From: Acidobacteriota bacterium
GTDB taxonomy: Bacteria > Acidobacteriota > Thermoanaerobaculia > Gp7-AA8
Direction of reading: 5' to 3'
Length of the DNA stretch: 64,000 nt
Assembly: GCA_019244185.1 (NCBI GenBank)
Contig: JAFATB010000006.1
Span: forward strand, 553,614-617,613
Position 1 is the stretch's first letter, and the number at the start of each line of letters is the position of its first letter. The notes beneath the pieces were generated by a model. It saw nothing but the letters and a program-made list of their open reading frames with translations, did not search any database and was not told the DNA's origin. A program made the translations under genes and the position numbers. This document shows, piece by piece, positions 22,893 through 31,797 of this stretch.

Positions 22893-24290
22893 TTACTGCA
22901 GACCGAGGGCGCGGGGCGCGTTGATCTTCCCCTTGCCGTAGAACGGATCGGTGCCCGGCTGGCCGAGGTCGTCGGCCGACTGCTGCAGGCGCGCCTTCAC
23001 CTGCGACGGCTTGTCCTTGCCGACGTTCTCGACGATGAGCGCGGCCAGACCGGTGACGTGCGGCGCGGCCATCGACGTGCCGTTCGCGCCGACGATGAAG
23101 TTGCCGGTGCGGCAGATCGTCAGGCCGACGGACGCCGCGCTGCGCGAGCACGCGGAGTAGACGAAGCCGCCCGGGTTCGTGGCGCCGCTGCCGGTGCCGC
23201 CCGGCGCGGAGACGTTGATCGACGAGCGGCCGAAGTTCGTGTAGCCGGCGATGGCGTCGTAGCCGTTCGGCCACGGGCCGTTCACGCTGCCCGACGCCGA
23301 AGGTCCGAGCGCGGAGACGCAGACGGTGTTCGGCGCGTCGCAGTACGTCGTCTCGATGTTGCCGTCGTGGTCGAGATCGCGGCCGTCGTTGCCCGCGGCC
23401 ACCACGATGAGTGTGCCCTTGCGATGCGCGTAGTTGAAGACGCGGTTGATCATGCCGATGAAGCGGCCGTTGCCCGCCTTCGTGAAACCGCCGCCGAGGC
23501 TCATGTTCGCGACGTCGGCGTCGATGTCGGCGGCATACAGAACGCCGCTGAGCACGGAGCCGAACGAGCCGCTGCCGGCGGTGCACTGTCCGAACTGATC
23601 GGTCGTGAGTCCGAGCACCTTCACCGGCACGAGGCGCACGCGCGAGGTGACGCCAGCGGTCGCGCGCGCGTTGCTGGAGACCGTCGCGGCGACGTGGGTG
23701 CCGTGGAAGACGAGATCGTCCGTCGCACCGAACGTGAACGGCGCGCCCGGCACGCAGGCCGGGTTGTCGAGCTGGAACTGCGCGCCGAGCGAGTAGTCGA
23801 CGAGGCCGGCCAGATCGACGTGCGGGCTCGCGCTGCGGTCGATGCCAGTGTCGAGGATGGCCACGCGGACGTTCGGCGAGCCGATGCGGCCCGCGGCCCA
23901 CGCGACGTCCGCACCGATGGAGCGCATGTTCCACTGGCGCGCGAAGAACGCGGCCGTCGACGGCACGGCCGTGCTGGTGGCATCGGCGAACGACTGCTCG
24001 GCCGAGGCCACTTCGATCTGATCGTCGAGGACGAAGTTCTCGTCCGCCTGTACTTCAGCGACACCGGAGAGCGCGCCGAGACGGGCCGCGCCGTTCGCGT
24101 CGATACCGGACACGATGGCCATGACCTCGTGCTGGAACGCGACCCGGCCGCCCACGCTGGCCACCGTCGACGAGAAATTCGCCGGCGAGCCGTTCTTGAA
24201 GGCGACGATGTAGTCACCGGCGAACGCGCCGGCAGCCACGGAGAGCAAACACACTACGAACGCACCGCGCATCAGATTCTTCATATGCAC
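22893..24290 (-). CDS. Secreted S8 subtilisin-like serine protease
   Basis: VAILDTGID, HGTHVAA, AAGN, GTSMAAPHVTG; signal peptide and prodomain. Confidence 0.95.
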   Translation of the reverse strand: MHMKNLMRGAFVVCLLSVAAGAFAGDYIVAFKNGSPANFSSTVASVGGRVAFQHEVMAIVSGIDANGAARLGALSGVAEVQADENFVLDDQIEVASAEQSFADATSTAVPSTAAFFARQWNMRSIGADVAWAAGRIGSPNVRVAILDTGIDRSASPHVDLAGLVDYSLGAQFQLDNPACVPGAPFTFGATDDLVFHGTHVAATVSSNARATAGVTSRVRLVPVKVLGLTTDQFGQCTAGSGSFGSVLSGVLYAADIDADVANMSLGGGFTKAGNGRFIGMINRVFNYAHRKGTLIVVAAGNDGRDLDHDGNIETTYCDAPNTVCVSALGPSASGSVNGPWPNGYDAIAGYTNFGRSSINVSAPGGTGSGATNPGGFVYSACSRSAASVGLTICRTGNFIVGANGTSMAAPHVTGLAALIVENVGKDKPSQVKARLQQSADDLGQPGTDPFYGKGKINAPRALGLQ

Positions 24291-24377
24291 CTGGACCGAT
24301 CCTTTCGTGATGTGGGAAAGAGCGGCCGTAGTGTAGTGCGGGATCGCGGGATGTCAAGCAGTACTTACGGACGGCCG

Positions 24378-25859
24378 TCAGCTGTTCGGGGTGAGGATAT
24401 ACGTCACCAGTCCGCCGTGGCGCCGCGTGGGATCGGCGACGAGGTGGAACTCCTTCCCGCTGACGTGTTTGATGCCGATGCTCAGATGGGTACAGGTGCC
24501 GTTGATCTTGAGCTCATTTCCGTTGCCGGGAGTGAGTTTGCAGTCGATCTTGTCCCACAGGCTGTAGTAGTCGGCTTTGGCCATCGGGTCGTAATACTTC
24601 TTGAGAAGCTTGACCAGCACCGCGGCGTGGCTCGTAAAGACGAAGAACCCGTCTTTCTTGATGCCGTTGTATTCGATATTGCTCTTGATCTGCGGATCGA
24701 TGAACGTAGGGACTCTCACAATCGCCGACTGGTTCTGCGGGAGTACATAATCCGTCTCGGCGTCCACGCCGTACTTCTGGAGAATCGTGGCGAACGCATT
24801 CGCGAGCGTAATGCAGCTTCCGTAGCGGTCCAGTGAATTCGGGTTCTCCATGAAATCCTCGGCCTGGTCGTCGGTGCCGATGAACGCCGTCCCATTGACC
24901 AGCGCGGACGCAGAGTACCGGAAGCCATAGTTCGTGAATTCTTTGAACAGCCTGTCGACGAACAGCCGCAGGCTGGCCTTGTCGTTTACATGGACGGCCG
25001 TGGATCCGTAATAGAGCTCGCCCTTCTTGCCTTTGGTCACGCTACGCGTGATGTACCCCATCGGATCGCGCTGCTGCCATTGAATATTGCTCCAGCCAAG
25101 GCGCAGGTGCGTCAATCGCGTATCGAGCGTGGTGAGGTCGTTTTCGAGCGCGTTGTACTGCCCTTCGTTGTACGCGGCCCGATCGAGATTGTTGAATCGC
25201 TGCTGGATCTGGACCAATACGGTCGGCGGCCGCATCCAGGAACGGTTCGTCGCAAAGTCATTGAGCGTATTCGCGATTTTCGTGCGCAGATTGTCGCGCA
25301 GCGTATTGATGCGCGTCTCCTGTTCGTTGTAGCCCTGCATGAAGCCGAGCAGCCAATTGAAGCGGTTGTATGTGAGCGGCTGGGCCGTACCCGGCGGGAG
25401 CCGCCGCGGCGGCGCGGCATCCACGCGCTGCACGGCCTGAATCGCCATCCGCTCCGCCTCCGCTTCCAGCATCGCATCCTGCACGACCGCCACGCCGCTG
25501 CCGCTTACATTCCGCACGCGTCCCGTCCGCTGCTGCACGACGTGCGCGAGCTCGTGCGCGAGCGTATGCCGCCCATGCGGCGTGGCCGGATCGTACTGGC
25601 CGGCCGCGAAATGAATGTGCGAGCCGTGCGTGAACGCCTGCGCGCGGATCGCCTGCGCCACCGCGCTCGACGGATGGACGCGCACGTGATCGAACCGCTG
25701 CCCGAACGCCGCTTCCATCCGCTGCCGTACATCGGCCGCCAATGGCTGCCCACCCTGCACCGGCAACCGCGCCGCCTCCTGCGGCGAGAGCCGCGCCGGA
25801 ACCTGTGCCCCGCGAGGAAACCGCCCTTGAATCACCGAGCCGTTCATCGGATGAGCCAT
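24378..25859 (-). CDS. DUF4157 (eCIS core domain) protein with divergent C-terminal putative toxin domain
   Basis: GQPL...MEAAFG..F..VRVH, AQAFTHGSHIHF, LAHELAHVVQQ, LEAEAERMA. Confidence 0.85.
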   Translation of the reverse strand: MAHPMNGSVIQGRFPRGAQVPARLSPQEAARLPVQGGQPLAADVRQRMEAAFGQRFDHVRVHPSSAVAQAIRAQAFTHGSHIHFAAGQYDPATPHGRHTLAHELAHVVQQRTGRVRNVSGSGVAVVQDAMLEAEAERMAIQAVQRVDAAPPRRLPPGTAQPLTYNRFNWLLGFMQGYNEQETRINTLRDNLRTKIANTLNDFATNRSWMRPPTVLVQIQQRFNNLDRAAYNEGQYNALENDLTTLDTRLTHLRLGWSNIQWQQRDPMGYITRSVTKGKKGELYYGSTAVHVNDKASLRLFVDRLFKEFTNYGFRYSASALVNGTAFIGTDDQAEDFMENPNSLDRYGSCITLANAFATILQKYGVDAETDYVLPQNQSAIVRVPTFIDPQIKSNIEYNGIKKDGFFVFTSHAAVLVKLLKKYYDPMAKADYYSLWDKIDCKLTPGNGNELKINGTCTHLSIGIKHVSGKEFHLVADPTRRHGGLVTYILTPNS

Positions 25860-25922
25860 GATCCCTCGTCTCCGTCGTTCAGCGTCTCGGGAAGTAAGGA
25901 GATTTTACGACAGGGGGAGTTT

Positions 25923-25998
25923 TGGCTGTGGCGGGAGGGCTCGAACCTCCGACCACCGGATTAACAATCCGGCGCTCTACCAACTGAGCTACACCACA
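25923..25998 (-). tRNA. tRNA-Asn (GTT)
   Basis: 76-nt cloverleaf: TGTGGTG/CGCCACA acceptor stem, anticodon arm CCGGA-TTGTTAA-TCCGG, TTCGAGC T-loop, discriminator G and CCA. Confidence 0.97.
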
Positions 25999-26032
25999 GT
26001 ACGTGCGCGGCGGGAGGGGGATGGTGGCGCGG

Positions 26033-26740
26033 TCAGCGGGGGGTTGTCAAGGCGGTGCGGATGGCGCGCAGGCGCTCCAGCGCTTGCGGCATGTCGGCGT
26101 GGATGCAGATCGTGTCGAAGGCGATCGGGATGCGGGTGCCGTCGCGGGCGATGACGGCGCGTTCGTTCGCGAGCATTACGGCCTGCGCGGCGGCTTCTTC
26201 GATCGTGAGCGTGGAGCCGGTGATGCTGCGCGGGACAAGCGAGCCGTCGGGCTCGTAGCGGCGGTCGGCGAAGGCCTCGCGGATGACGCGCGTGCCGGCG
26301 GCTTGGGCGGCGGCGGCCATCTGCGAGCGATCGGGCGCGACGATGGCGATGGTGGGATCGACGGCACACATTGCGTCGACGATCGTGTCCGCGCGCGTGC
26401 GGTCTTTGTGCGCGTCGTTGTACAGCGCGCCGTGCGGCTTCACGTGCTCCACGCGCGCGAACGCGCGCAGCGCGGAGATCTGCGCGATGAGCGACGCGCG
26501 CAGCGCGTCGGCGTCGAGATCGAGCGAGCGGCGGCCGAAGTGCTCGCGATCGGGATAGGACGGATGTGCGCCGAACGCGACGCCGTAGCGCGCGGCGAAG
26601 GCCGCGGCCTCGCGCATCGAGGTCTCGTCGCCGACGTGACCGCCGCACGCGACGTTCGCGGACGTGATCAGCGGCCAGATCCCGTCTTCGTCCGGCGAAC
26701 CTTCGCCGAGGTCGGCGCTGAGATCGAGATCGAGAGTCAC
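26033..26740 (-). CDS. pxpA: LamB/YcsF family, 5-oxoprolinase subunit A
   Basis: DLGEG, SANVACGGHVGD, GAHPSYPD, HVKPHGALYN, EAFADRRY, TICIHAD. Confidence 0.9.
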   Translation of the reverse strand: MTLDLDLSADLGEGSPDEDGIWPLITSANVACGGHVGDETSMREAAAFAARYGVAFGAHPSYPDREHFGRRSLDLDADALRASLIAQISALRAFARVEHVKPHGALYNDAHKDRTRADTIVDAMCAVDPTIAIVAPDRSQMAAAAQAAGTRVIREAFADRRYEPDGSLVPRSITGSTLTIEEAAAQAVMLANERAVIARDGTRIPIAFDTICIHADMPQALERLRAIRTALTTPR

Positions 26741-27936
26741 AGCTCGGTTCCTTTCGTTTCGGGTAGGAGCCAGATGAGGACCCCGCCGAGCGCGAAGAAC
26801 GCGGCGTCGGCGGCGAGGGAGAAGCGGAAGCCGTACGTCGCCGCCGCGGCGCCGATCGCGTACGGCGCGGCCGCGGACGCGAGGCGGCCGCCGTTGTAGC
26901 AGAAGCCCTGCGCGCTCGCGCGGATGCGCGTCGGAAAGAGCTCGGCGAGCATCGCGCCGAACAGCGAGAAATAGCCGTGCGCGAAGTAGCCTACCAGCGG
27001 GCCGATGAGCAGGAGCGTCAGCTTCGAGCGCGCGCCGAATGCGAACAGCGGCACCACCGCGGTCGCGGCGATCATGAAGAAGGTGAACGCGGGACGGCGT
27101 CCGATGCGGTCGGCAATCCAGCCGAAGCTCACATAGCCGAAGAACGCTCCGATCTGCAGCACGATCAGCCACGCGGCCGACTTCGTCAGCGTCAGCCCCG
27201 CGCCGCCCTGCGCCACAGGCGTCGCCAGAAACGCGGGCAGCCACGACGTCACGCCCCAGAATGCGACGAGCACGCTGCTCGCGAGGAGCGTCGCCAGCAC
27301 GACGCGCGCGCGGAATGCGGGGCCGAACAGCTCGAGCCAGCGCGACGGCTCGCGCGCGCGCCACACCTCCGGCTCTTCGACGTTGCGGCGAATCGCGAAC
27401 GCGAGCACCGCCGGCAGCGCGCCGATGAGAAACAGCACGCGCCAGCCGAAGCGCTCGAGGACGAGCGCGGAAATGCCCGCGGCGAAGAGCGCGCCGATCG
27501 CCCACCCCGCCTGCATGATCCCCATCGCCTTCGCGCGATGTTGCGCAGGCCACGTCTCCGCGACGAGTACCGAGCCGCAGGACCACTCGCCGCCCATGCC
27601 GAGGCCGACCAGCACGCGCCACGCGATGAGCTGCCAGAGCGCGGACGACGTCGCGAGGCCCGCGGTCGCGGCGGAGTACAGCAGGATGCTGAACGTCATC
27701 GCGCGCACGCGGCCGATGCGATCGGCGAGACGTCCGAAGCCGATGCCGCCGATCGCGCTCGCGATGAGCGCCACCGACGTGAGGCCGCCCATCGTCGACT
27801 TGGCGAGGCCGAACTCCTGCTGGATCGGCACGACGGCGAAGGTGAAGAGGAGGAAGTCCATCGCGTCGAGCATCCAGCCGAGCTGCGCGGCGAACAATGC
27901 GCGCCACGCGCGGCGGTCGACGTCGATGAAGGACAT
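26737..27936 (-). CDS. MFS transporter (aromatic acid / SHS-like)
   Basis: GWMLDAMD, GRLADRIGR, GLGMGGEW, ELFPTRIRAS, LPETKG. Confidence 0.9.
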   Translation of the reverse strand: MSFIDVDRRAWRALFAAQLGWMLDAMDFLLFTFAVVPIQQEFGLAKSTMGGLTSVALIASAIGGIGFGRLADRIGRVRAMTFSILLYSAATAGLATSSALWQLIAWRVLVGLGMGGEWSCGSVLVAETWPAQHRAKAMGIMQAGWAIGALFAAGISALVLERFGWRVLFLIGALPAVLAFAIRRNVEEPEVWRAREPSRWLELFGPAFRARVVLATLLASSVLVAFWGVTSWLPAFLATPVAQGGAGLTLTKSAAWLIVLQIGAFFGYVSFGWIADRIGRRPAFTFFMIAATAVVPLFAFGARSKLTLLLIGPLVGYFAHGYFSLFGAMLAELFPTRIRASAQGFCYNGGRLASAAAPYAIGAAAATYGFRFSLAADAAFFALGGVLIWLLPETKGTEL

Positions 27937-27985
27937 CGCGGCGGAGTGTACAACGCCGCCGCGATGCCGGTTCAACGCGAGAGAT

Positions 27986-28032
27986 TCATCAGGACGAAAG
28001 GGCCGCGATCATGGCAACCGCTCACAAGCGCC
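27986..28032 (+). repeat. Inverted repeat, left arm of precursor cassette 1
   Basis: tcatcaggacgaaagggccgcgatcatggcaaccgctca is complementary to 28356-28398. Confidence 0.8.
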
Positions 28033-28138
28033 GGATTCAGGGACTGCACCGGCGGCATCTCAATTTGCATTCGAAGTCGGTTTAAAGCCGGAACATCGAC
28101 AGCGGACCGCCGTGCGATCCGCCGAACAGCGCCGAATC

Positions 28139-28261
28139 TTACGCGCCGCCGCAGAGAACCGCGACAGCGATCAGGGCGCCGACCGCAAAACCATTCCAGA
28201 AGTCCGTGGCGGCTTCGCTGATGGGGGCGACGACGTTTTCCATTTCTTCGATCATGAGCAT
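28139..28261 (-). CDS. RiPP precursor peptide, CGGA type (40 aa)
   Basis: MLMIEEMENVVAPISEAATDFWNGFAVGALIAVAVLCGGA; AAGGAG RBS; paralog at 30244-30366. Confidence 0.9.
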   Translation of the reverse strand: MLMIEEMENVVAPISEAATDFWNGFAVGALIAVAVLCGGA

Positions 28262-28355
28262 GTGAGTGATCTCCTTTTCCATGTAGTGGGCGATTCGATT
28301 GGGGGTGTAACTGCCGGGGACATGACAACCGGACGCCGAGGGGCTACTGCATCGT

Positions 28356-28398
28356 GGCGCTGAGGGTTGCCGTGATCGCGGCTCTCTCCTCCTGATGA
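28356..28398 (-). repeat. Inverted repeat, right arm of precursor cassette 1
   Basis: Minus strand reads tcatcaggaggagagagccgcgatcacggcaaccctcagcgcc. Confidence 0.8.
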
Positions 28399-28402
28399 CT
28401 CC

Positions 28403-29629
28403 TTATTCGTAACGAAGACATTCGATCGGATCGAGCATGGAGGCTTTCCACGCCGGATACAGACCGAAAAGAATTCCGATGGCCGCGGGGACGAGGAACG
28501 CGCTGCTGACGGCCCACAACGGAATGGGACTGAACGAGCCGAAGAATCCGTGGCTGATCGCGCCGCCGGCCGCATAGCCGAGCGCAACGCCGGCCGCTCC
28601 GCCGAGGAGCGATAAGAGCGACGCTTCAATGAGGAACTGCACCAGGATGTCGCGCGGCTTGGCGCCGACGGATTTCCGGATGCCGATCTCACGCGTGCGC
28701 TCGGTGACCGTGACGAGCATGATGTTCATGATGCCGACGCCGCCGACGAGCAGCGCGATCGACACCATGCCGCCGGCCACGGCGCCGATGAAGCGCGTAA
28801 TGCCGGAGACGATGGAGACGAACTGCCGCTGGCTGAAGACGCGGAAGCCTTCCTGCTCTTTCGGTTTGAGGCCTTTGACGCGGCGTAATGCGGCGGTGAC
28901 GAGCTCCGCACCGTCATCCGCGCTGACCTTCGAGTCGATGCGCACCTGAAAGAACAGCTGATGGCGCTGCTCTTCGGTGAGCATCGGCAGGCCGGTGCGC
29001 AGCGGGATGAGGATCATGCTGTCGGGATCGGCGCCGAGGGTTGCGCCGCGTTCCTCCAGCACGCCGATGATCTCGAGTCCGAGAGACGGCGTCTGAATGA
29101 TCTTGCCGATGGGATTGCCTTTGATGGCGAGCTTCTCGAGCACCTTCGGGCCGACGATGACCACTTTGCTGCCGAGGCGGATCTCCGCCGGGACGAAATT
29201 GCGTCCGGTCTTGACGTTGATGTCGTTGAGCTCGAGATAGGTCTCGTCCGACATCAGCATGTTGACGGAGGTGGTGTGGCCGTTGGCCTTGAGATCGGTG
29301 CTCGTCAATGCGAGGGGTGTGACCTGGGTGACCTGGCGCACGAGGCGTTGCACGGCCTTCATGTCGTCTGCGGTCAGGTCGCGATTGCGGACTTTCCCAT
29401 ATTCCTCGAGCGGAACGTCGCCCGGCAGGAGAGGGCGGACGAGCAGCGTCTGGCTGCCGGCGCGCTCGATTTCCTGCAGGATGCTGCGCTCCATTCCCTG
29501 GACGAGGCTGACCACGGCGATGACGCTGGTCACGCCGATGACGATGCCCAGGGAGGTGAGGATCGAGCGCATTTTGTTCGCTTGGAGCGATTTGAGCGCC
29601 GCACGCAATGGCTCGATGAGGCCGAACAT
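28403..29629 (-). CDS. MacB/FtsX-type ABC transporter permease
   Basis: NKMRSILTSLGIVIGV, LLVGGVGIMNIMLVTVTERTREIGIRKSVGA, LDPIECLRYE; AAGGA RBS before ATG 29629. Confidence 0.92.
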   Translation of the reverse strand: MFGLIEPLRAALKSLQANKMRSILTSLGIVIGVTSVIAVVSLVQGMERSILQEIERAGSQTLLVRPLLPGDVPLEEYGKVRNRDLTADDMKAVQRLVRQVTQVTPLALTSTDLKANGHTTSVNMLMSDETYLELNDINVKTGRNFVPAEIRLGSKVVIVGPKVLEKLAIKGNPIGKIIQTPSLGLEIIGVLEERGATLGADPDSMILIPLRTGLPMLTEEQRHQLFFQVRIDSKVSADDGAELVTAALRRVKGLKPKEQEGFRVFSQRQFVSIVSGITRFIGAVAGGMVSIALLVGGVGIMNIMLVTVTERTREIGIRKSVGAKPRDILVQFLIEASLLSLLGGAAGVALGYAAGGAISHGFFGSFSPIPLWAVSSAFLVPAAIGILFGLYPAWKASMLDPIECLRYE

Positions 29630-29678
29630 GGGATGAGGTCCTTTCTGTAAATTAATTGAGCGTTTGTGAACCCGAGGC

Positions 29679-29712
29679 CCCATTACGGCCTTCCGGAGAA
29701 GGCCGTAATGGG
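29679..29712. other. Perfect 15-bp stem-loop between precursor genes and permease
   Basis: CCCATTACGGCCTTC-CGGA-GAAGGCCGTAATGGG; no U-tract. Confidence 0.75.
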
Positions 29713-29736
29713 ATGGCCGGAACTGCATGGCGATCC

Positions 29737-29795
29737 GCAGAAAAGAGCCGCGACCACGGCGATCAGCAACCCGTCAGCTTCACACCCACAGCAAA
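29737..29795 (+). repeat. Inverted repeat, left arm of precursor cassette 2
   Basis: gcagaaaagagccgcgaccacggcgatc...tcacacccacagcaaa is complementary to 30444-30494. Confidence 0.8.
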
Positions 29796-29837
29796 ACTGA
29801 CGACGACTCGCCAAGGGACTCTTTCAGCCGAAGCCGA

Positions 29838-29960
29838 TTACGACGAGAGAGCCGCGATGATGATGATCGTCGCCGCGCCGGCGCCAGCACCCGCGAGCCA
29901 CGTTCCGACGCTGGGGGCAACCACTTCTTCCATCTCTTCGATCATGAGCACGTTGTTCAT
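29838..29960 (-). CDS. RiPP precursor peptide, LSS type (40 aa)
   Basis: MNNVLMIEEMEEVVAPSVGTWLAGAGAGAATIIIIAALSS; AAGGA RBS. Confidence 0.9.
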   Translation of the reverse strand: MNNVLMIEEMEEVVAPSVGTWLAGAGAGAATIIIIAALSS

Positions 29961-30033
29961 TGGAGTCTTTCCTTTTCTCTGAAGTTGGTGAAACGTTGTT
30001 GTTTAGGGACCGGGTCTGTTGGTGGACGACGGA

Positions 30034-30156
30034 CTACGAGGAGAGCGCCGCGATGATGATGATCGTCGCCGCGCCGGCGCCAGCGCCCGCGAGCCACGTT
30101 CCGACGCTGGGGGCAACCACTTCTTCCATCTCTTCGATCATGAGCATGTTGTTCAT
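30034..30156 (-). CDS. RiPP precursor peptide, LSS type (40 aa), near-identical duplicate
   Basis: MNNMLMIEEMEEVVAPSVGTWLAGAGAGAATIIIIAALSS; differences within the core are synonymous. Confidence 0.9.
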   Translation of the reverse strand: MNNMLMIEEMEEVVAPSVGTWLAGAGAGAATIIIIAALSS

Positions 30157-30243
30157 TGGAGTCTTCCTTTTCTTTCTTTTAGTTAGTTTGTGAAAGGGCC
30201 CGAAATGAATCAATGCCCGTACTGCGTGTGAAGCAGAGGCGTC

Positions 30244-30366
30244 TTATGCGCCGCCGCAGAGGATCGCGCCCGCGATGAGCGCGCCGATGGCGAAGCCCTG
30301 CCAGAAGTCGTTCGCGGCCTCGCTGATCGGGGCAACGATGGTTTCCATCTCTTCGATCATGACCAT
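30244..30366 (-). CDS. RiPP precursor peptide, CGGA type (40 aa)
   Basis: MVMIEEMETIVAPISEAANDFWQGFAIGALIAGAILCGGA; AAGGAG RBS. Confidence 0.9.
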   Translation of the reverse strand: MVMIEEMETIVAPISEAANDFWQGFAIGALIAGAILCGGA

Positions 30367-30443
30367 GTGCGTAATCTCCTTTCTATAAGATGATGTTGCC
30401 GTACTGCCAAAACCGGGGTCCCGTACAACCTAGCGCCGCCAGC

Positions 30444-30494
30444 TTTACTGCGGGTGTGAGCGCTGCGATTGCCTTGGTCGCGGCTCTTTACTGC
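30444..30494 (-). repeat. Inverted repeat, right arm of precursor cassette 2
   Basis: Minus strand reads gcagtaaagagccgcgaccaaggcaatc...tcacacccgcagtaaa. Confidence 0.8.
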
Positions 30495-30525
30495 CGACCG
30501 GACCACGATTCGATTGATGCCTGAT

Positions 30526-31797
30526 TCAGTTGGCGGAGTGCCGCTCCTGCTCGCGCTGTTTCCGCTCCTCCTGCGAGTCGGACAGGTGATGCAGCGTGAC
30601 GTCCGCCTTGTCCTTGAGATCGCGCAGCTTGCGCAGAGGGCCTGTAATGACCTTGTCGCCTTGTGCGAGACCGTGTTGGACTTCGTAATACTGGCTGTCG
30701 GCGATTCCGAGCGTGACCGTCTTCTCGTCGACCTTGCCGTCTTTGTTCGCGACCATGACCACGGAGCGCGTCTGCGGGACGAACAGACCCTGCTTGCGCG
30801 CGTCGTCCATCGAACCTTCGCGCTCGAGCACCGACTGCAGCGGCACGCGCACGGCATTGTTCGCGTCCGCGGTCAGAATCACCGCCCGCGCGCTCATACC
30901 GGGGCGCAGCAACGCCATGTCGCGGTCGGTGACCGTGAGGAACACCTTGACCTTGTACATGTTCGCGTCCTGACCGGTCGCTTCGGCCGCGGAGGCGATC
31001 TCGCTGATCGTGCCGCGGAAAATGCGGTCCGGCAGCGGCTCGACGCTGACCTGCGCCGGCTGACCGACTTTGAGACGCACCACTTCGTTCTCGTTGACCT
31101 TGATCTCGGCGCACGTGTCGGTCATGTCCGAGACGACCATGAGCACCGCGCCGGGGAGGTTGCTCGTGCCCGGAATGGCCATTTCGCCTTTTTCCGCGCG
31201 CAGTGAGGTCACGCGGCCCACAATGGGCGAGCGGATCTCGGTTTTCGTGAGACCGTCGCGCATGGCCGCGACGTTGGCCTCGTTCTGTGCGACGTTCGCT
31301 CGCGCCGACTGTGCGGTGAACTCCGCGCTCTCCATGCCGATCTTCGCCTGGCGGTCCGCCTCGACGGAGACGAGCCCTTGATGGAACAGCGCGTCGGTGC
31401 GCTGGTACGTTTCACCCGCGAGCCGCCGGGCCGCGTCGAGACGGGCCGCGTCTTTGCGAGCCGACTCGAGCAGCGCCTCCGCTTGCGAGAGCTGCTGCCG
31501 CAGACGCTCCGGATCGATGCGTACGAGCAGCTGTCCCGCCTGCACGTACTCGCCGTCCTTGACCAGGAGCTCCGTGATCTCGCCGGCCACGTTGGTGCCG
31601 ATGTTCACGCGGGTGCGGGCCTGGATCTCGCCGCTGGCCTGGATGGTCTCGCGCACTTCTCCGCGGTCGACCACGTCCCAGTTGAGGGCGTCGGCTTCGC
31701 TGCCGGTCTTTCCGAACGTCAGTCCGAGGCTGAGCATGACCGCGCAGCCGAGGACGATCGCCATCTGAATCTTCGTTCGCTTGCGCATTGGAATCAA
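30526..31797 (-). CDS. Efflux periplasmic adaptor (membrane fusion protein)
   Basis: ASGEIQ, VKDGEYVQAGQLLVRID, IRSPIVG, LRPGMSARAVI, GLAQGDKVITG. Confidence 0.92.
   Translation of the reverse strand: MIPMRKRTKIQMAIVLGCAVMLSLGLTFGKTGSEADALNWDVVDRGEVRETIQASGEIQARTRVNIGTNVAGEITELLVKDGEYVQAGQLLVRIDPERLRQQLSQAEALLESARKDAARLDAARRLAGETYQRTDALFHQGLVSVEADRQAKIGMESAEFTAQSARANVAQNEANVAAMRDGLTKTEIRSPIVGRVTSLRAEKGEMAIPGTSNLPGAVLMVVSDMTDTCAEIKVNENEVVRLKVGQPAQVSVEPLPDRIFRGTISEIASAAEATGQDANMYKVKVFLTVTDRDMALLRPGMSARAVILTADANNAVRVPLQSVLEREGSMDDARKQGLFVPQTRSVVMVANKDGKVDEKTVTLGIADSQYYEVQHGLAQGDKVITGPLRKLRDLKDKADVTLHHLSDSQEERKQREQERHSAN

Follow-up and report, generated by a model that had tools for sequence, protein, structure and literature searches.

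Long-range inverted repeats around the precursor cassettes of an acidobacterial peptide operon: candidate RNA processing stems apparently derived from precursor-gene ends

Clusters for peptide natural products need far more precursor than enzyme, an excess known to be obtained through a separate promoter or through a hairpin that follows the precursor gene. The subject here is a minus-strand operon of an Acidobacteriota bacterium (Thermoanaerobaculia, Gp7-AA8; GenBank assembly GCA_019244185.1), an organism known from metagenomes only, with its DNA present in rhizosphere, root and rock samples. The operon lies in a stretch of 64,000 nucleotides (nt) of contig JAFATB010000006.1 (positions 553,614 to 617,613), which is called the window here and whose first letter is position 1. 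Four genes for precursor peptides of 40 amino acids (aa) are found in two cassettes, one in cassette 1 (A1) and three in cassette 2 (A4, B1 and B2), and each cassette is bracketed by a pair of long inverted repeats whose role is the question addressed here. We lean towards the reading that the repeats form long-range stems in the operon transcript by which the precursor cassettes are tagged for RNase III-type processing or for stabilisation; as a model this is plausible, if just short of probable.

The initial annotation of the locus, made from the letters alone, had described four copies of a motif in two inward-facing pairs. All four were recovered where it had placed them, as exact copies of 16 nt at 28002-28017 (+), 28367-28382 (-), 29747-29762 (+) and 30469-30484 (-). 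One further match with a single mismatch was found in the window at 1964; approximately 0.24 matches are expected, and five were reached in 0 of 100 shuffles. The motif is embedded in longer inverted repeats, which in pair 1 amount to 37 nt with 86% complementarity (I1, 27983-28019/28365-28401) and in pair 2 to 34 nt with 85% (I2, 29731-29764/30467-30500) and 26 nt with 81% complementarity (I6, 29780-29805/30434-30459). By gapped alignment the arms became slightly longer than first described. Cassette 1 is flanked on the minus strand by arm 1-up (28347-28401), its 5' arm, and arm 1-down (27983-28040), which is the 3' arm on the sense RNA; cassette 2, likewise on the minus strand, is flanked by the 5' arm 2-up (30434-30500), which begins approximately 26 nt after the stop codon of the HlyD gene, and the 3' arm 2-down (29731-29805). 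The arms of one pair lie 345-700 nt apart and in the gapped alignment form 47 Watson-Crick and 1 G-U pairs (pair 1) or 56 and 7 (pair 2) on the sense RNA. When the 200 nt before each cassette were aligned locally with the 200 nt after it, the complementarity scored 51 per cassette, compared with a maximum of 25-28 in shuffled sequences (0 of 300 shuffles). The pair-specific extensions reported before are present as well (tcatcagga versus tcacacccRcagYaaa). In addition, 28 nt of arm 1-up (28369-28396) are complementary to arm 2-down (29733-29760) with 82% identity (I4), and an alternative fold of these two arms could possibly bracket the permease gene between the cassettes.

The annotation had named a common genome-wide repetitive extragenic palindromic (REP) element as the finding that would speak against a link to the precursors. 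The genome of 5.30 Mb contains only seven exact copies of the motif, four of them at this locus, and a blastn search with the whole arms returned as significant matches only the arms themselves and their partners, except for one match of 24 nt (E 3e-4). The motif was not found in any locus fetched from other genomes. Hence a REP- or BIME-type repeat (BIME, bacterial interspersed mosaic element) was rejected, since there are no dispersed copies of the arms in the genome.

Folding of the minus-strand RNA, which had been proposed with the original prediction of stems, closed both long-range stems in the minimum free energy as well as in the centroid structures, and the sense-RNA folds had z-scores of -3.95 (0 of 100 shuffles) and -6.77 (0 of 20 shuffles). 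The strand on which a helix would form can be read from transition differences between partner arms, which give a G-U pair in the RNA of one strand and an A-C mismatch in that of the other. In pair 2, seven of eight such differences are G-U on the sense RNA and one on the antisense RNA, and the duplex is calculated at -113.1 kcal/mol for the sense and -85.5 kcal/mol for the antisense strand. These include both differences in the inner stem of this pair, which has 16 bp; at 29788/30451 and 29792/30447 the minus-strand RNA has G-U pairs, as had been noted before. The Shine-Dalgarno sites of the precursor genes fall outside the stems and, therefore, translation should not be blocked. The stems are well over two helical turns long and exceed the ~20 bp taken here as the minimum for a stalk of the rRNA type, the kind of substrate that is cut by RNase III, and an RNase III is indeed encoded in the genome (TIGR02191, 242.4 bits versus a cut-off of 166; G000:C10:174327-174983). 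A perfect local hairpin (15 bp, loop of 4 nt) that lacks a U-tract is located on the minus strand between arm 2-down and the start of the permease gene (29679-29712). On the sense strand the core motif itself scores as a small hairpin of the terminator kind whose tail is rich in T (29760-29747), and a scan for terminator-like structures from 27800 to 30700 gave five versus 2.5 expected in shuffles, which is not significant. In the same region a scan for sigma-70 promoters gave no site, and comparison of 26000-36000 with the Rfam covariance models brought up no family at E values up to 1.

Near relatives give no measure of whether the pairing is maintained: a two-domain ortholog of the putative maturase, a fusion of a ThiF domain with an M50 protease that is encoded at the head of the operon, was found in none of 34 genomes of the same genus (including the unpublished G002 and G024; the class-level comparison includes the unpublished G042). 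The matches in these genomes cover a single domain, which is the ThiF part in all except G020:C322, where it is the M50 part (residues 98-321). Therefore, covariation is not obtainable from near relatives. The two cassettes can, however, be compared with each other. Identity amounts to 114 of 139 positions over the A gene together with its ribosome-binding site, to only 26 of 69 columns over the spacer that separates this site from the up arm, and to 26 of 40 positions over the up-arm core; the cassettes are old duplicates. The alignment places the up arms at equivalent sites ahead of the A gene of each cassette, and they therefore predate the duplication of the cassettes. Despite the scrambled spacers next to them, partner arms are still 85-86% complementary. 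Among 34 register-matched core pairs, 21 are identical in both cassettes, two are changed on one side and five on both sides with pairing retained, five are lost in one cassette and one is unpaired in both. The five compensatory double changes agree with the earlier statement that the partner arms co-evolve. As far as sequence comparison can tell, this pattern fits selection for pairing, but it could also result from gene conversion between partner arms or from each repeat having been remade later.

A second comparison was possible within metagenome run X4, which contains a variant strain (records 17, 22, 23 and 24) with approximately 3.4% divergence and the same gene order. Its arms 1-down, 1-up and 2-up carry no substitution among those listed, which include none of the 34 of record 22 that would cover arm 2-down. 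The 74-nt spacer at 28063-28136 carries at least eight substitutions and four indels. Not one of the 16 gap letters of record 17 falls within an arm; their positions are 27959, the spacer stretch 28109-28135, 28344, and 28404 at the outer border of arm 1-up. The conservation of the arms in the variant strain is suggestive and yields no covariation. On the whole we regard the stems as probably, if narrowly so, selected RNA structures.

The arms had been described as non-coding, which holds for their intergenic position but not for their content. On the sense strand, arm 1-down translates in frame as AVAMIAALSS followed by a stop codon, and arm 1-up on the plus strand as ALRVAVIAALSS, again followed by a stop codon. 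The B precursors end in TIIIIAALSS and a stop codon, and several of the differences from the readings of the pair-1 arms are synonymous. Arm 2-down reads ...GLLIAVVAALFCGS. Arm 1-up resembles the 3' ends of both B genes better than any of 500 shuffles, and arm 1-down matches the 3' end of B2 (0 of 500 shuffles) and, less strongly, that of B1 (1 in 100). The arms of pair 2 are more decayed, with p ~0.06 against the 3' end of B, while arm 2-down matches the 3' end of A1 with p 0.006. Because of this similarity to precursor C-termini we infer that the arms are recycled fragments of precursor-gene 3' ends. In both pairs, the fragment behind the cassette has the sense orientation and the fragment ahead of it is reversed.

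How the fragments may have come to lie there is suggested by related clusters. The maturase has 42 two-domain homologs with 44-71% identity, mostly from metagenomes of Acidobacteriota; its closest relatives are 70-82% identical (P0002-P0004, L115 and L121). At least one precursor gene lies directly upstream of the maturase gene in all 16 related loci whose sequence reaches the 5' end of this gene, usually in the order B type, then A type. In the window, the approximately 560 nt upstream of the maturase gene (35394-35955) contain no precursor gene. A small open reading frame (ORF) on the plus strand whose product looks hydrophobic is found in this region (35700-35903). In four of four relatives with both genes, the gap between the matches to HlyD and to the permease amounts to approximately 12-50 nt; in the window it amounts to approximately 900 nt and contains cassette 2. 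Because the precursors of all 16 related loci sit upstream of the maturase gene, the cassettes of the window occupy, by sequence comparison, a derived position.

Among 14 relatives with enough flanking DNA, a clear bracket was found only in L117, a metagenomic cluster whose maturase is 54-58% identical to that of the window. Its arms (1374-1408/1812-1846) surround its two precursors at the ancestral position and were not equalled in 300 shuffles. The stem was closed in the predicted fold (z -5.71, 0 of 100 shuffles), and two G-U pairs are found on the sense and none on the antisense RNA, with duplex energies of -53.3 and -42.9 kcal/mol, respectively. A local hairpin of 14 bp lies after the bracket and before the maturase gene. 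L117 and cassette 2 thus have the same layout of stem, local hairpin and next gene. There is no convincing homology between the arms of L117 and those of the window; the best resemblance, between the down arm of L117 and arm 1-down, is weak (5 of 400 shuffles, uncorrected for 14 comparisons). A survey of the fetched loci (2.07 Mb) gave 29 pairs of long-range inverted repeats of at least 28 nt, and only the pair of L117 encloses precursor-like ORFs. A pair in L060 was rejected as a bracket because it encloses no precursor, and a pair in L113 (7638-9903) was traced to a GatB/YqeY-like gene that is present twice in opposite orientation next to a transposase gene, with repeats of 101 and 75 nt, unrelated to precursors.

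From these observations the following model is proposed. The four arms would be transcribed in one minus-strand operon RNA, and each up arm would pair in the cell with its own down arm to stems of approximately 55 and 70 positions with a few mismatches and bulges, which would loop out one precursor gene in cassette 1 and three in cassette 2. A double-strand-specific RNase, such as the encoded RNase III, may then cut the stems and release precursor mini-messages whose paired, exonuclease-resistant ends would let them outlast the messages for enzyme and transporter; the permease message would then begin near the strong hairpin at 29679-29712. The outcome would be a rise of precursor over enzyme and transporter. 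The arms may have arisen as inverted copies of precursor 3' ends when the cassettes moved away from their position upstream of the maturase gene. The earlier proposal of RNA processing stems is thus supported in part, by the predicted folds, the co-evolution of the arms, their absence as a dispersed repeat, the RNase III gene and L117, and weakened by the lack of bias in pair 1, by the many relatives without a bracket and by the likely origin of the arms in precursor-gene ends of relocated cassettes. Excision by RNase III specifically is possible but doubtful. A bolder version, in which precursor-end fragments were recruited as rRNA-like stalks to give a portable, self-delimiting cassette that would be excised as a stable mini-message from any operon it enters, with position-independent dosage, and did so recurrently and independently (twice here and once in L117), is to be regarded as speculative and somewhat unlikely.

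Several observations weigh against processing stems, and most of them are what would be expected if the arms were neutral scars of events in which parts of precursor genes were duplicated in inverted orientation, left behind during the move of the cassettes and still able to pair because they are young or gene-converted. The arms are recognisable as precursor-gene ends, with the stop codon in register and with matches beyond shuffles of the pair-1 arms to the B end and of arm 2-down to the A1 end, and the cassettes have left the place they hold in 16 of 16 related loci and opened the gap between HlyD and the permease from ~12-50 to ~900 nt; both fit a by-product of rearrangement. The bracket is absent in 12 of 14 testable related clusters and marginal in L116 (9 of 300 shuffles); this peptide family can therefore do without it. 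Pair 1 is without G-U bias (one on the sense versus two on the antisense RNA), and its duplex is calculated at -81.7 kcal/mol for the sense versus -85.8 kcal/mol for the antisense strand. The pooled G-U count, including L117, is marginal with 10 sense versus 3 antisense (one-sided binomial p ~0.05); it speaks for a helix in the sense RNA without settling the matter. Lastly, the co-evolution signal comes from two paralogous cassettes only and could be mimicked by separate recent inverted duplications or gene conversion. Young scars are, however, hard to reconcile with up arms that predate the duplication of the cassettes and partners that remained 85-86% complementary while spacers of equal age were scrambled (26 of 69 columns), nor would they explain why the pair was kept in five of six double changes. 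The 7:1 G-U bias of pair 2 with 28 kcal/mol of extra stability on the sense strand, the arms that seem unchanged, among the differences listed, in a strain with 3.4% divergence, and the independent bracket of L117 at the ancestral position, where no relocation was involved, argue in the same direction. On balance we consider neutral scars the main rival, though a rather unlikely one.

The same folds, G-U pairs, duplex energies and co-evolution would serve equally well for functional RNA stems that do something other than RNase III excision, such as insulation from decay, bringing HlyD and MacB translation or RNA folding into proximity, or attenuation together with the hairpin at 29679-29712, in which case read-through into the permease gene would be reduced. 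The 15-bp hairpin after cassette 2 and its 14-bp counterpart after the bracket of L117, the terminator-like core motif with its T-rich tail (29760-29747) and the complementarity of arm 2-down and arm 1-up that allows a permease-bracketing fold would suit such roles, but the number of terminator-like structures does not exceed expectation significantly (5 versus 2.5) and Shine-Dalgarno sites outside the stems make direct control of translation unlikely; we judge this group of explanations improbable. Very improbable is a role of the arms at the DNA level, as ends of an invertible segment that switches the precursors on and off or as terminal repeats of a mobile cassette. Inverted repeats do surround a gene cassette and the cassettes have clearly moved compared with related clusters, but the genome, which is 98.9% complete, has no match to serine recombinases (PF00239), and of its 13 matches to tyrosine recombinases (PF00589) none is in the window and the nearest is approximately 190 kb away. 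Elsewhere in the genome the arms are not repeated, no target-site duplication or direct repeat was seen at their outer borders, and the longest perfect matches between partners (10-13 nt) are too short for efficient homologous inversion. Contigs of the runs X1, X2, X4 and X5 contain no strand-changing joint at the arms, which is weak evidence as contigs drop rare forms, and nothing at the DNA level explains why the G-U pairs of pair 2 favour the sense strand. A MITE- or transposon-like cassette (MITE, miniature inverted-repeat transposable element) was rejected because there are no direct border repeats, no further copies and no transposase among the ORFs from 24000 to 36000. Integron attC sites, which are local repeats and do not bracket genes, and the a1/a2 repeats of retrons were dropped since neither an integrase nor a reverse transcriptase is encoded nearby.

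The operon in which the processing stems are proposed is a single run of minus-strand genes in the order ThiF-M50, membrane protein, Yip1, HlyD, cassette 2, MacB permease and cassette 1. At its head lies the gene of the putative maturase (33024-35393, minus strand), a fusion of an E1-like ThiF domain and an M50/HExxH intramembrane protease. It is followed by the minus-strand genes for a membrane protein of 156 aa and a Yip1/YknW-like protein and by the HlyD-family adaptor gene upstream of cassette 2 (30526-31797, minus strand). Cassette 2 comprises, all on the minus strand, A4 (30244-30366, ending in LCGGA and 82% identical to the A1 unit), B1 (30034-30156, 95% identical to the B2 unit) and B2 (29838-29960, ending in TIIIIAALSS). 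The gene for the MacB/FtsX-type permease (28403-29632, minus strand) separates it from cassette 1 with A1 (28139-28261, minus strand; MLMIEEME...LCGGA), after which a gene for an MFS transporter follows in the minus-strand run. All four precursors are 40 aa long and have the leader M(L/V)MIEEME..VAP in common, and their cores are of two kinds, with A ending in LCGGA and B in IIIIAALSS; a search of the 5.3-Mb genome gave no further genes of this precursor type. Within the permease gene, the contig depth rises ~50- to 100-fold and contigs break at 28636-28843 in all four metagenome runs, most likely because this piece encodes a motif conserved in ABC/FtsX genes of many organisms. Directly next to the cluster, genes encode an S8 subtilisin-like peptidase (22893-24290), a protein of 493 aa with an eCIS_core domain (PF13699; 24378-25859) and a tRNA-Asn (25923-25998, minus strand).

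The precursors gave weak matches to the daptide family NF041806 (E 0.002-0.008; A1 matches the MpaA2 family of daptides with E 0.002), and the protease half of the maturase matches the daptide protease NF041824 with 228 bits. Daptide clusters are characterised by an HExxH protease, MpaA-type precursors, an aminotransferase together with a dehydrogenase, and a C-terminal Thr (10.1101/2023.03.08.531785). An assignment to this group was rejected: the protease score is under the cut-off of 300, neither an aminotransferase nor a dehydrogenase was found among the operon genes scanned, and the precursors end in Ala or Ser. The cluster, with its ThiF-M50 fusion, small membrane protein, Yip1, HlyD, MacB permease and two kinds of 40-aa precursors, is an uncharacterised type of ribosomally synthesised and post-translationally modified peptide (RiPP) cluster.

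The arrangement has counterparts in known systems, none of which is identical to it. In rRNA precursors, long-range pairing on either side of the product forms stems (PMC6582327). The RNase III stems of 16S and 23S rRNA resemble the stems proposed here in that flanks hundreds of bases apart pair, the stems have a length suited to a double-strand-specific RNase and the precursor is polycistronic. The product there is a stable RNA, whereas here it would be small protein-coding genes; moreover, here the arms appear to be built from gene fragments, the bracket is found in one of 14 relatives and cleavage is only predicted. In selective RNA processing and stabilisation (SRPS), for example in the cellulosomal cip-cel operon, unequal amounts of operon products are obtained by transcript cutting and protective structures (PMC4423207, PMC8219983). 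The proposed purpose is the same as that of the cassette stems, but SRPS as described there relies on local stem-loops at gene 3' ends, whereas here one long-range helix would join both ends of a cassette. REP, BIME and MITE-like elements are also imperfect palindromic sequences between operon genes that are able to stabilise neighbouring mRNA, but they are multi-copy throughout a genome and the arms are found at one locus only. Invertons share the inverted repeats around a short gene-bearing segment; unlike there, no recombinase is encoded nearby and no second orientation was seen in the contigs, which drop rare forms. In operons for lantibiotics and other RiPPs, a hairpin or terminator after the structural gene gives an excess of precursor message. 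The goal would be the same, and a strong local hairpin (29679-29712) indeed follows cassette 2, but these hairpins are local and lie just after the precursor gene, whereas the arms here are distant and enclose the genes. A search of the literature, incomplete in its coverage of subscription journals, gave no account in which RiPP precursor genes are enclosed by long-range repeats. What appears to be new, then, is an rRNA-style bracket on peptide-precursor messages, apparently built from recycled gene ends and with a predicted function.

If the favoured reading of processing stems is true, a long-range helix around precursor cassettes would be a different solution to the problem of dosage, borrowed from the maturation of rRNA. 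Such a helix would account for the ability of precursor genes to change place in the cluster while keeping their level of expression, and inverted fragments of the 3' end of a neighbouring gene would be a simple mutational route to RNA devices. For genome miners, such brackets would be a structural signpost in the search for small precursor genes.

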